Made by a program: the position numbers and the translations under genes. A stretch of 41,192 nt of DNA, taken from assembly GCA_964645535.1 (NCBI GenBank), contig CAZYCQ010000030.1, positions 1-41,192 of the forward strand, written 5' to 3'. This stretch comes from an uncultured archaeon. Its GTDB lineage: Archaea > Asgardarchaeota > Heimdallarchaeia > Heimdallarchaeales > Kariarchaeaceae. Shown here one piece after another: positions 154-6,261 of this stretch. The notes below the pieces were generated by a model. That model did no database searches, had not been told where the DNA came from, and was given only the letters and a program-made list of their open reading frames with translations. Every line of letters starts with the position of its first letter. Positions within the stretch are counted from its first letter, which is position 1.

Positions 154-2061
154 CTATTTCTTTGATTTTCTTATGACTATGATGACGGCCGTTGCTCCAC
201 CGATGATTGCGGCAGTTCCTGCAAGGGCACCTACAAGCTGGGTCTGCCTGTTGGATGTATCTGAAAGGTCAAGGGTGGCTGAGGGTGATGTTTCCTCGAC
301 AGTAGAAGAACCGACCACGGTAATTTCGTGAAGATTTACCCTTACGGTTTCTCCATTATAGACAATGTTGACGGTGATGAACACTGTTGAGTTCGATGAG
401 GTTTGAGGTGCAACCCACAGAGCCTTGGCCTTGCCATCCGTATCGGTCAGCAGTCTCAGGACTTCAGGAATGCCGGAGGCAGAAGCGGGGAAGCTTCCTC
501 CTGTTGCGATGAGCTCTATTGTCAAACCGGCAGAGGGAATACCGTTCAGGAGAGCCTCAACTTCGATGGAGACGTTTTCTCCTGCCTTCACGATTGCGGA
601 GGAAATCGAGGAATTTCCGGTCGGAAGAGTCAGGACACGCTGGACGATTAATGTGGCATTGGCACCTGTATCTTCCACCTTGCTTCCGGAAACGGTTGCG
701 AGTACATTGATTTCATTGAACTCGAACTCAAAGATGACATTTGAAACATCAAGGAAAGCCTTGGCATTTCCTCCTTCATCCGTGACGGCGGTCATGGCAT
801 CTGAAGAGGTGGTATTCCATTCACCCGTATCGGTTGAAAATAGGATTGAAACTCCTTCTACAGGGGTCGAGGAGTTCACTTCGGTGACCCTGACCTGAAC
901 GGGGATCGTCTCGTTCTGGAGCCAGCCCTCAAGAGAGGATGTCCAATTGACTTGGACTTTCATCAGAACCGGGTCTATATTGATATCAAAGGAGAATTCT
1001 TTGGAATTAAATCCCAACTGAAGAAGAACGTTTATTGTTGCTGTTTCAGGCACATTGCCGTCAAGGGTTGGTGCTTTCCAAGTCACTTCTGCATATCCTG
1101 AGGAGTTGGCAATAGAAAGGATTTCAGTATCCAGAAATGAGCCATTCTGGAGGAAGAAGCCTCGGGTGGAGGTAATGAGAAGTTCAGCGCCATCTACGGA
1201 ACCGTTGGAATTTTGGACATTGAAGACGAGCTGTGATACGGTTTCCTCATCCACTTCCCCTGGACCAAGATAGGACACGAACAGAGATTCGGAATCGGAG
1301 AGGACAATATCAAATGGGAATGAGACCGTCCTGTTCAGCAAAGGAGAAAGTTCAGCGAGTACGGTCAATGATGAGTTGACCACAGGTGTTTCTGGGGGAA
1401 GAAGCGGAGCTTTCCAGAGTGCCACAAATTTGCCTTCGGAATTTGTGAAGCCTTGGATCTGATCGGAGCCAGATTGGGAAAAATTCCCATCAGGGATCTG
1501 CAATGTCACTTGGGCATTGGGGGTGGGATTTCCAAGAGAATCGCCGACAAATACCTCGATGGGAACTTCAGTCCCTGCCAGCACGGTCGAAGAAATGTTG
1601 GCATTGATTTGTGAGAGGTCCTCCAATCCGGAATGCTCAACGGTGACCGTATCCTGAAGTGTCAGCGCCAGTTCTTCAGGTGCATAGAATATGTCCGCAG
1701 TGACCATAACAGATATGGATGGGATTTGGAAGCCGAGGACAGGAGCCTGCCATGTCACCTCCACATATCCCGTTGAATTTGTTTCTGCCTCAACGATGTC
1801 TCCAGGGACAAAGGGAACAGCAGGAATTCCAGAAACCAAAGCAGTAAACGAACCGTTGGTCACGGACAGGGTAACTGTAGCGCCTGCAACAGGATCCGTG
1901 GCATTTCCCACATATACAAGCATTGAAGCAGTTCCTTCCGGTTCAACGGAAGAGGGAACGGTCAGAACGGATCCAGAAAGGGAACCTACGATAGAAGCTA
2001 CTGGATTGGCCATGAAAAATGGGAGCAGCAGCAATGTCAGGAATAACGTCTTTTTCTTCAC
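154..2061 (-). CDS. Secreted, C-terminally anchored surface protein with ~5 Big_1/invasin-like Ig domains
   Basis: Start moved to GTG at 2061 (GAGGTGA RBS; MKKKTLFLTLLLLPFF signal peptide). Recurrent motif: TNSTGYVEVTWQAP, TNSEGKFVALWKAP, ANSSGYAEVTWKAP, TDEGGNAKAFLDVS, TDTDGKAKALWVAP. S/T linker, then TM helix and RKSKK. Confidence 0.8.
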   Translation of the reverse strand: MKKKTLFLTLLLLPFFMANPVASIVGSLSGSVLTVPSSVEPEGTASMLVYVGNATDPVAGATVTLSVTNGSFTALVSGIPAVPFVPGDIVEAETNSTGYVEVTWQAPVLGFQIPSISVMVTADIFYAPEELALTLQDTVTVEHSGLEDLSQINANISSTVLAGTEVPIEVFVGDSLGNPTPNAQVTLQIPDGNFSQSGSDQIQGFTNSEGKFVALWKAPLLPPETPVVNSSLTVLAELSPLLNRTVSFPFDIVLSDSESLFVSYLGPGEVDEETVSQLVFNVQNSNGSVDGAELLITSTRGFFLQNGSFLDTEILSIANSSGYAEVTWKAPTLDGNVPETATINVLLQLGFNSKEFSFDINIDPVLMKVQVNWTSSLEGWLQNETIPVQVRVTEVNSSTPVEGVSILFSTDTGEWNTTSSDAMTAVTDEGGNAKAFLDVSNVIFEFEFNEINVLATVSGSKVEDTGANATLIVQRVLTLPTGNSSISSAIVKAGENVSIEVEALLNGIPSAGLTIELIATGGSFPASASGIPEVLRLLTDTDGKAKALWVAPQTSSNSTVFITVNIVYNGETVRVNLHEITVVGSSTVEETSPSATLDLSDTSNRQTQLVGALAGTAAIIGGATAVIIVIRKSKK

Positions 2062-2065
2062 AAGA

Positions 2066-5065: not shown

Positions 5066-6261
5066 TTTCTTTTCCTCCATAGGATGGGAATGGCCAAGAT
5101 TAACGGGAATAAAGAGATGGGGGACTGGGCTACAGTTGTTGGAAGTGAAGTGGTCAATTCAATGCCGGGGATGGTGAGATTGTACTGTTTCGGACCGAAA
5201 ACCAATCCGTAATCCAGTGTCAGGAGTTCAACGGTGAAGAATACAATCACATCATCCTTTGTTTGCGGTATTCCTTCTGAAGACCATTCTAAAGAGGCAA
5301 AGCCGGATGCATCCGTCTTGACCATTGCCGAGCTTCCCCCATCTGAAAATGATCCTCCAGTGGCAGTGACTTTGAACGTGGCATTGATCCATGGGCGACC
5401 ACTCAGAGTCGCATTGAAGCTGAAAATGGCTACAAAGGAGGTATTTTCCTGGGATACAAGGAAGTCAACAACAACCGAAGGAATTGGAGGACTCTTGATC
5501 ACCCGTAAGGTAGTGTTGACAAGAAGATCGTTGTATTTCTGCTTTGAAACGGTTGCCGATAGAAGGACGTCATTTTCATCAAAAAGAAACTCCTGAACAG
5601 AGAAGTCAACATCTGCATTGACTTTTCCTTCCTGATCGGTAAGAAGGACGATTGAATTGGTTCCAGTTTCCAAAAATTTTCCGACTTCCAAGGAAAGGGT
5701 AACTTCAGCTCCATCCACAGGTAATGCTGTATCCTGATCAACAACTGTCAGACCAACGGTTCCTGTCTCATTTTGGAAATATGTATCTTCAACCAGCCAT
5801 TCAACATCCAGATTGAAATACACCAAATTTACATGAACCGAGGCCGAATCGGTAGCTTCCAGAGTATCCAGACTGGCCACCGCCGTTATGGTGACATCGA
5901 CATCAGTTTCGAAAAGGACAGGAGCAGTCCAAAGGACAAAAATTGTCGTATTTGAGGCGGCAAATTGGTAGGAAACCGTCGATTGGTTGTTTTCAAAAAC
6001 GCCTCCCGTAGTCTCAAGCAGGAGATTCATGAGAGTACCATTGACATCATCAGTTTGGATGGATACCGAAATATTGTGGGAACTTCCATCATCCACTGAG
6101 GAAGGCACGTTTTCTAAGTTGACAGAAAGATAGGTGGTATTGGATTCAGTTGTAAATATCAATTCCCGATCCATTGAAAGGTCATGTCCAAGAATGGACT
6201 GGGAATGGAGGGGGAACATTACCAAGATGGATATGATTGCCACTAGCCTGAGGACTTTCAT
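5062..6261 (-). CDS. Secreted Ig-like surface protein with CTERM-like anchor; paralogue of 154..2061
   Basis: Signal peptide MKVLRLVAIISILVMFPL; ~3 Ig-like domains (TGGVF..WTAP, TDQEGK, TDASGFASLEW); ends TTVAQSPISLFPLILAIPILWRKRK. Confidence 0.8.
   Translation of the reverse strand: MKVLRLVAIISILVMFPLHSQSILGHDLSMDRELIFTTESNTTYLSVNLENVPSSVDDGSSHNISVSIQTDDVNGTLMNLLLETTGGVFENNQSTVSYQFAASNTTIFVLWTAPVLFETDVDVTITAVASLDTLEATDSASVHVNLVYFNLDVEWLVEDTYFQNETGTVGLTVVDQDTALPVDGAEVTLSLEVGKFLETGTNSIVLLTDQEGKVNADVDFSVQEFLFDENDVLLSATVSKQKYNDLLVNTTLRVIKSPPIPSVVVDFLVSQENTSFVAIFSFNATLSGRPWINATFKVTATGGSFSDGGSSAMVKTDASGFASLEWSSEGIPQTKDDVIVFFTVELLTLDYGLVFGPKQYNLTIPGIELTTSLPTTVAQSPISLFPLILAIPILWRKRK

Follow-up and report, generated by a model that had tools for sequence, protein, structure and literature searches.

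The first 41,192 bases of contig C30 (CAZYCQ010000030.1) from an uncultured heimdallarchaeial archaeon of the Kariarchaeaceae (assembly GCA_964645535.1: 3.6 Mb, 176 contigs, 89% complete), hereafter the window, carry a three-gene operon on the minus strand at the contig end. Its middle gene, gene 2 (P0002; 2066..5065), encodes a 999-aa modular type IV pilin, the giant, in which an archaeal class III signal peptide, together with a pilin fold, precedes a long row of beta-sandwich domains. We consider it probable that the giant is a minor or tip pilin adhesin whose assembly machinery is encoded elsewhere in the genome, and that the flanking gene 1 (P0001; 5062..6261, 399 aa) and gene 3 (P0003; 154..2061, 635 aa) encode its co-translated, membrane-anchored partners. 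We prefer this reading because the pilin head is complete, because the N-terminal helix is near that of the likely shaft pilin and because a single set of assembly machinery is found elsewhere in the genome. Established here are the gene structure, the class III signal, the pilin fold, the domain make-up, the presence of the machinery and the conserved pairing of the genes.

Results

The class III signal and pilin head of gene 2

The class III signal peptide (4958..5065, minus strand, as are all features of the operon) consists of the leader MKFGNRKS (aa 1-8) followed by the helix ISPVVATILLVALTVAAGATVYFLV, which extends to about aa 36, and the leader is predicted to be cut before Ile9. With the NCBIfam model for the N-terminal domain of archaellins and type IV pilins (TIGR02537; curated cut-off, 20 bits), gene 2 reached 35 bits when its protein was compared and 40.7 bits when the genome was scanned. 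The [KR][GAS]/[VI]SP motif is kept in 16/16 relatives of gene 2 (22-53% identity): K or R invariably fills position -2, S, A or G occupies position -1 without exception, and the mature end starts with [VI]SP.

An AlphaFold2 model of gene 2 residues 1-230, built from a 16-row alignment, reached a predicted local distance difference test (pLDDT) score of 89.9 and showed a helix (11-36), a beta-sandwich (42-147) and a second sandwich (151-229). The first sandwich forms the pilin head (aa 40-147; 4625..4948), with a pLDDT of about 95. We used residues 6-147 as the query in a structural alignment (VIA) against solved archaeal type IV filament (T4F) subunits. Matches were obtained with the pili of S. 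solfataricus (6w8x, Z 8.3, 125/132 residues aligned), S. islandicus (6nav, Z 8.0, 123/131 residues) and P. calidifontis (8fk7, Z 7.3, 130/136 residues), with the Tri-pilus (8tib, Z 8.5, 87 residues), with the Aap pilus (8q30, Z 7.0, 132/141 residues) and with the M. hungatei archaellin (5tfy, Z 7.8, 145/164 residues). From this near full-length alignment to solved archaeal subunits we conclude that the N-terminus, as modelled, is a complete pilin module and more than a signal peptide. The claim of the first-pass annotation, that an archaeal class III signal sits on a multidomain middle protein of ~1000 aa, is thus borne out by the 35-bit TIGR02537 match and the full pilin fold.

Within the head lies a DxDxDG-like loop, in which D53 and D61 are invariant and D57 is present in at least 90% of the rows; W90 is invariant as well. 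As far as its residues tell, the loop resembles calcium loops. An FG-GAP match in the paralogue of the giant on contig C2 fell below threshold and counts as a hint.

The rod

Behind the pilin module (aa 1-147), the giant continues as a rod of ten beta-sandwich domains (~850 residues), eight of which are repeats of ~82 aa. The two domains nearest the pilin module (aa 151-229 and about 229-304; 4154..4615) are transthyretin/CnaB-like according to Pfam and VIA; aa 151-304 matched Big_1 (38.4 bits) and CarboxypepD_reg (58.4 bits) in Pfam and, by structure, 3e8v (Z 11.0) as well as CnaB domains and SlaB. The eight tandem repeats that follow (aa 304-963; 2177..4156) are Ig_DR_A0283-like (60.7 bits), with a mean pairwise identity of 41% (20-68%). 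All three of these domain matches, Big_1, CarboxypepD_reg and Ig_DR_A0283-like, lie above their cut-offs. Every ~82-aa repeat carries a conserved TN-x-S/T-G sequon, and the repeat region is rich in aromatic residues (16% Y+W+F). Because Tandem Repeats Finder did not find a DNA-level tandem repeat behind the eight protein repeats, we take the repeat duplications to be old. A sequence comparison of the gene 2 product with all PDB chains gave no match at E <= 0.01. Since the giant joins an N-terminal pilin module to domains that are not specific to type IV pili (T4P), it is a modular pilin in the sense of PMC8179133.

Pilus machinery and a candidate shaft pilin elsewhere in the genome

The profile scan found no T2SSE or T2SSF gene on the contig of the operon. 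The first-pass annotation had noted that the window holds neither an assembly ATPase nor a TadC platform gene and had proposed that these are supplied in trans. A genome search for the prepilin peptidase, a pilB-type ATPase and tadC agrees with this proposal, because all three were found on other contigs. One A24 prepilin peptidase is encoded on contig C13 (Peptidase_A24, 32.8-35.2 bits; Arc_PepC_II, the archaeal type II C-terminal domain, 30.7 bits), and one FlaI-type ATPase is encoded on contig C6 (T2SSE, 128.7 bits; NF058587, 409 bits, under the equivalog cut-off of 550). Two half-size TadC/ArlJ-like platform proteins (T2SSF) adjoin the C6 ATPase and correspond in alignments to the two halves of UpsF/ArlJ, N-terminal and C-terminal, and several small proteins with class-III-like N-termini follow the platform genes. 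Across 41 related genomes of the order, which are incomplete metagenome-assembled genomes (MAGs; 63-95% complete), the platform pair was present in 38 and the A24 peptidase in 37. A distance of ~2.7 Mb separates the giant from the platform pair in two closed genomes.

The sister genomes G002 and G003 encode a stand-alone PilA-type pilin of 142-149 aa (TIGR02537, 30-32 bits), which in G002 also passes Pfam Pilin_N (PF07790) with 26.7 bits. The copy in the genome studied here is partly masked (C4:7117-7608). The mature helix of this copy, VSPVIAVVLLIALTVAAGAIIWTIV, agrees with the giant's at 15/25 positions, with conservative changes at the rest; such likeness would be expected of subunits that share one filament core. 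Further class III proteins in this genome are a 1,287-aa giant on C2 and, on C7, a protein of 447 aa in which there is a faint hint of H-lectin.

The surroundings of several of these genes may be described briefly. The C4 pilin gene (7117-7608, within C4:5133-9325) is located between a signal-peptidase-I-like gene (S24/S26 below cut-off) and a homologue of TRAP-beta (PF05753, 43 bits; cut-off 22.4), followed by an ArsA/Get3-type ATPase-like gene recognised by eye from its GKGGTGKT and DPAHSLSD motifs. This gene order is kept in G002 and G003, which places the pilin gene within a translocon-related cluster. In the region C13:40719-45575, the A24 peptidase gene begins 4 nt after the gene for a membrane protein of 506 aa whose repeats are squalene-hopene-cyclase/TED-like (SQHop_cyclase_C, 32.4 bits), and an 825-aa penicillin amidase (597.9 bits) comes next. 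In the closed relative G015, the T4F locus (C1:2800483-2809640) holds, beside the ATPase, a 285-aa protein with a PilA-type N-terminus, MKLNRKKGVSPIVATILMF (TIGR02537, 18.3 bits, slightly below cut-off); this locus therefore links a PilA-type N-terminus to T4F machinery. At C71:3359-3595, a class III N-terminus (TIGR02537, 28.9 bits) is broken by an in-frame TAA and may be a pseudogene or an assembly error.

The anchored products of genes 1 and 3

The two flanking genes are paralogues, gene 1 being shortened to three domains from the five of gene 3. BLASTP of P0001 against P0003 orthologues gave 1e-24, and the match covers positions 236-547 of the gene-3 family profile. Gene 1 encodes a Sec-type signal (MKVLRLVAIISILVMFPLHSQS), three immunoglobulin (Ig)/macroglobulin (MG)-like domains and a C-terminal membrane helix followed by RKRK; gene 3 encodes a Sec-type signal, five MG/Ig-like beta-sandwich domains and a C-terminal membrane helix followed by RKSKK. 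The Sec assignment follows from sequence pattern and hydrophobicity alone, in that both proteins show an N-terminal n-h-c signal that looks cleavable, and at the other end a hydrophobic helix precedes the basic residues.

The AlphaFold2 model of P0003, built from 21 family members, has a pLDDT of 85.5; in it, five beta-sandwich domains are separated from the membrane helix (616-632) by a disordered linker rich in Ser/Thr (aa 586-615). Foldseek aligned P0003 over ~600-650 columns with the rows of MG domains in complement C3/C5 and in alpha-2-macroglobulin, with E-values of 5.6e-20 to 1e-16, at a TM score of only ~0.2, so that the domains are alike and the overall architecture is not. Sequence matches to MG4 occur in a paralogue and an orthologue. 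The first-pass annotation had described both neighbours as Sec-type, C-terminally anchored, Ig-like proteins, and this description holds for the n-h-c signals, for the hydrophobic C-terminal helices with their basic tails and for the five modelled beta-sandwiches of the 635-aa protein.

N-glycosylation sequons number 11 in gene 1 (4.1 expected) and 18 in gene 3 (7.4 expected), and all three proteins of the operon are enriched 2.3-2.7x over shuffled controls, as would be expected for archaeal surface glycoproteins. Cysteine is absent from P0001, P0002 and P0003. For either flanking protein, no NCBIfam family was found at E <= 1, and no recognised sorting signal of the archaeosortase/PGF-CTERM type was reported. 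The tails of 21 members of the partner family show no visible shared motif beyond the linker, the helix and the basic tail. The family is very small: 47 proteins were found at E <= 0.001 among 1.84 billion cluster representatives, and ~20 of these are full length.

Gene structure and junctions of the operon

The open reading frame (ORF) listing of the window contains three minus-strand ORFs without internal stops, at 5062-6261, 2066-5080 and 154-2172. Because genes 1-3 each match homologues in other genomes with E-values of 1e-130 to 0, we regard them as real genes, not chance ORFs. At the first junction, genes 1 and 2 share an ATGA start/stop overlap (5062..5065; GGAGGaaaagaaaATGAaa), in which the stop TGA of gene 1 occupies 5064-5062 and the start ATG of gene 2 occupies 5065-5063; GGAGG is found at 5074-5078, 8 nt upstream of this ATG. 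The same type of 4-nt overlap joins genes 1 and 2 in G003, G002 and G007. At the second junction, the TGA stop of gene 2 (2068-2066) lies inside GAGGTGA, the Shine-Dalgarno motif of gene 3 (2066..2072; agaGGTGAtcttGTG), 4 nt ahead of the GTG at 2061. Three minus-strand genes joined by an ATGA overlap and by a stop codon inside GAGGTGA had been reported by the first-pass annotation, and we found them where it had placed them.

Two earlier start codons were rejected. With ATG 5080 as the start of gene 2, GGAGG would become part of the coding sequence, and in both G003 and G007 the orthologue begins at the overlapping ATG; with TTG 2172 as the start of gene 3, the gene would overlap gene 2 by 107 nt and its signal peptide would be buried. 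Unitig contigs from two metagenome DNA runs of one hot-spring study bridged both junctions without indels (3013-6175 and 1674-2774). They differ from the window by strain variation at the level of single-nucleotide polymorphisms only, and the window DNA is present in these hot-spring runs. A look through sequencing runs for this DNA turned up these two DNA runs and no RNA run.

Promoter and terminator calls were made by eye. The 60-nt AT-rich intergenic region upstream of gene 1 (6262..6321) contains the TATA-like stretch TTATTATTCATTTTAT ~20-40 nt before the ATG of gene 1, and no Shine-Dalgarno motif was seen in this region; it is a candidate archaeal promoter for a transcript with no leader or a short one. 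Downstream of gene 3, a T5 run (148..152) located 2 nt past the TAG stop and, after it, a T6 run (91-96) are candidate archaeal oligo-T terminators. Because a TATA-like stretch lies upstream of gene 1 and the T5 run follows gene 3, the arrangement would fit a single transcript within which two genes are translationally coupled.

The amidohydrolase gene at 6322-7188 was rejected as a part of the operon, since this neighbourhood is kept in G002 and not in G003. On the other side, a fourth minus-strand gene (window 1-69) starts at GTG 69-67 after GGAG and the T6 run; its product begins with the hydrophobic N-terminus VKLQQRLFFYTMIILGVTFIILG and runs off the contig end. Further into the window (18521-26292, minus strand) are two FtsX-type permeases (35.7 and 28 bits), one of which is 1,348 aa long and has a very large extracellular insert. 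An 842-aa protein beside them has no Pfam family at E <= 0.01.

Conservation of the triad and the pair

G002 and G003, of the same genus, and G007, of a second genus in the family, keep the three genes in the same order and with similar spacing (overlaps of 4 nt or gaps of 4-9 nt). The rest of the order has the unit as a pair, in which a partner of ~620 aa is encoded directly upstream or downstream of a giant of 907-1,042 aa; in two closed genomes the two genes are 1 nt apart. A profile search located the partner family in 18 of the 41 genomes. We compared the coordinates of the partner profile with those of the class III matches and found that, of 24 partner copies, about 20 have a class III giant as their immediate neighbour on the same contig and strand, often separated by 0-9 nt or joined by a 4-nt overlap. 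Most of the copies without an adjacent giant sit at contig ends. Relatives of the giant carry the source names 'Candidatus Kariarchaeaceae archaeon' and 'Candidatus Heimdallarchaeota archaeon', and one is already annotated as 'type IV pilin N-terminal domain-containing protein'.

The distribution of the partner family is patchy, with 3 of 19 genomes positive in one genus (g11), and because of this patchiness, which has to be read with the incompleteness of the MAGs in mind, the gene content suggests that the pair is an accessory trait. A second pair, which lies on C2 (624 aa + 1,287 aa) and has diverged deeply, is retained in the genome studied here and in two sister genomes, from which we conclude that the pair was duplicated as a unit long ago. 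Within C2:32217-45720, this second pair is located downstream of the genes for a small GTPase of the Ras family (149 bits) and a protein of 1,319 aa without a Pfam match. An Eco57I-like N6 DNA methylase gene comes between its giant and a protein of 385 aa that carries a signal peptide as well as a C-terminal anchor.

The synteny comparison therefore showed that the three genes occur together elsewhere. The first-pass annotation had spoken of a dedicated adhesion or contact apparatus; the gene association is conserved in relatives, and the wording was too strong, because the conserved core is the pair, which itself is found in only 18 of the 41 genomes, and the triad does not extend beyond the genus and family.

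Discussion

Relation to known systems

Modular type IV pilins are established in bacteria, where a survey has listed >1,200 proteins (PMC8179133); one bacterial example of 860 residues with 12 repeats is on record. The giant resembles bacterial examples such as PilB/PilC of S. sanguinis and CofB of enterotoxigenic E. coli (ETEC) in that a small pilin module is followed by a C-terminal functional module, for which display at the tip or in low copy has been proposed. It differs from them in its archaeal PilA/PF07790 module, which has neither the IPR012902 N-terminus nor Glu5, in its extension of ten beta-sandwich domains, in its coupled, anchored Ig-like partners and in a gene that is unlinked to pilus genes.

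With archaeal PilA-family pilins (PilA1-6 of Haloferax volcanii; 6w8x, 6nav, 8tib and 8q30 of Sulfolobales), the giant shares the class III signal, the hydrophobic helix and the beta-sandwich head. These pilins measure ~130-160 residues, compared with 999 in the giant, and the conserved DxDxDG-like loop of the giant's head is lacking from the genome's own small pilin. They too can be encoded by stand-alone genes that use machinery elsewhere, and archaeal ATPase/TadC pairs serve several pilin sets (PMC4858521). Asgard T4F components are described as scattered, with a few Heimdall genomes holding a simple core machinery, and class III proteins encoded elsewhere can 'functionalise' the base machinery (PMC13705601).

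Some archaeal T4P loci combine a large signal-peptide protein ('adhesin or minor pilin') with a large protein that has a C-terminal helix ('S-layer-like') (PMC4858521), and multi-Ig adhesin-like proteins are found in several subsystems (PMC13705601). In the T4P loci of Thermoproteales (subsystem 4G, arCOG05616/arCOG05471), a large multi-Ig signal-peptide protein is likewise paired with a protein that has one C-terminal helix (PMC4858521, PMC13705601). The likeness is one of description: the Thermoproteales proteins lie within T4P loci and are rich in cysteine, whereas the Heimdall pair is far from the machinery and has no cysteine, and the Heimdall partner family, unlike the 4G proteins, is restricted to Heimdall genomes. 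A literature search, the coverage of which is incomplete, found no paper on the giant family or its partner. The principle of grafting domains onto a pilin is known; what is new here is the family and the gene association, not a new kind of machine.

A probable modular pilin adhesin and the evidence against it

The route that we infer for the giant, from cleavage and polymerisation through filament position to adhesion and partner binding, would be as follows. The giant would be inserted into the membrane, the genome's single A24/PibD-type peptidase would remove its 8-residue leader, and the single FlaI-type ATPase together with the split TadC-type platform would lift it out of the membrane. 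It would join a filament built mainly of the ~150-aa PilA-type pilin from C4, where, given its bulk, it would probably be a tip or low-copy subunit, and its glycosylated, aromatic-rich rod would thereby be presented as an adhesin. The products of genes 1 and 3 would be exported by Sec, anchored by their C-terminal helices and made in fixed proportion through translational coupling. They are most likely cell-proximal partners of the rod, with a role in docking, in holding or as a counter-receptor. Their function is the least certain part of this scheme, docking or a counter-receptor role being suggested by the conserved coupling alone.

Several points weigh against a pilus-borne adhesin. A subunit of 999 residues is not known from any archaeal filament. 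Against Pfam Pilin_N, for which the cut-off is 25.2 bits, the gene 2 product scored 19.3 bits; an order-level orthologue passes with 37.3 bits, and the C2 paralogue and the C7 class III protein reach 23.9 and 23.6 bits. The Z scores of 7-8.5 for the pilin head are middling by the alignment tool's own scale, and the weight of the pilin-fold match rests on full-chain coverage, not on the Z values. Many conserved positions of the rod repeats (TN-x-x-G, G-x-Y) belong to the usual scaffold of CarboxypepD_reg-type domains, and the conserved aromatic residues may likewise be scaffold and form no binding face. Finally, the operon is coupled to Sec-exported, anchored proteins and includes no pilus assembly gene, which suits a membrane-anchored role equally well.

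Such a role is the substance of the alternative that we take most seriously, although we hold it to be rather improbable. Here the class III helix, cleaved or not, would serve as an N-terminal membrane anchor only, and the three proteins would form a glycoprotein coat like SlaA/SlaB, or a stalk-and-canopy layer, outside any pilus. The tight coupling to membrane-anchored Sec proteins and the lack of linkage to T4F genes favour a coat, as do the abundant sequons and the absence of cysteine in all three proteins; large, C-terminally anchored proteins of T4P loci have also been read as S-layer-like (PMC4858521), and aa 151-229 of gene 2 match a domain of SlaB (8qox_B, Z 8.5, 77 residues). That match, however, concerns a single generic beta-sandwich. 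Conservation in the giant extends beyond the hydrophobic helix to the whole pilin head, including the DxDxDG-like loop and W90, and the helix is very near that of the genome's small pilin. For a basic envelope layer it would also be unexpected that the pair was found in no more than 18 of 41 genomes and, within one genus, in 3 of 19, a weak point given that the MAGs are incomplete. A role in scavenging is much less likely. The giant would then act like a bindosome, as a class III substrate-binding protein that captures polysaccharide or other nutrients on a T4F base and has no part in adhesion. Widespread class III binding proteins are reported to use T4F machinery encoded elsewhere (PMC13705601) and are thought to be mounted there with non-pilin cargo on their class III N-terminus; the 16% aromatic content of the repeats and the same-strand amidohydrolase gene 60 nt upstream would suit such a function. 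Yet Pfam and NCBIfam found no solute-binding-protein domain in the giant, none of the 12 loci inspected adjoins an ABC transporter, the amidohydrolase neighbour is kept in part of the genus only, and the giant differs from bindosome-type proteins in retaining a whole pilin head.

The MG-like domains raise the further idea of an alpha-2-macroglobulin-like protease trap split over several genes, in which MG strings defend against proteases. The Foldseek matches of gene 3 to the MG strings of C3/C5 and alpha-2-macroglobulin (E down to 5.6e-20) point in this direction, and the C2 pair exceeds the cut-offs for bMG3 (67 bits) and MG4 (50.5 and 28.6 bits). No thioester/TED, bait region or CUB domain was found in the three proteins, however, and the TM score of ~0.2 reflects repeated domain similarity, not the architecture of alpha-2-macroglobulin. 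With no TED or A2M match and no cysteine (CGEQ), we rejected genes 1 and 3 as macroglobulin-family members or as a split alpha-2-macroglobulin, and we give a protease trap next to no credence.

A more specific version of the pilin adhesin, which we put forward as a long shot, is that the giant pilin and its co-translated MG/Ig partner are a ligand-receptor pair, in which the rod binds the partner or its glycans on a neighbouring cell and the C30 and C2 pairs have separate specificities. If true, Asgard archaea of the Heimdall group would possess a pilus-borne means of self or partner recognition for cell-cell contact.

The contact of Asgard archaea with other cells bears on models of the origin of eukaryotes, and the surface proteins of these organisms are little known. 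The locus described here provides a concrete candidate, namely a pilin-borne rod with conserved membrane partners, for which the likely shaft pilin, the peptidase and the assembly machine are encoded in the same genome. On the analysis presented, the operon can credibly be taken for an accessory adhesion device, one whose design is already known from bacteria.

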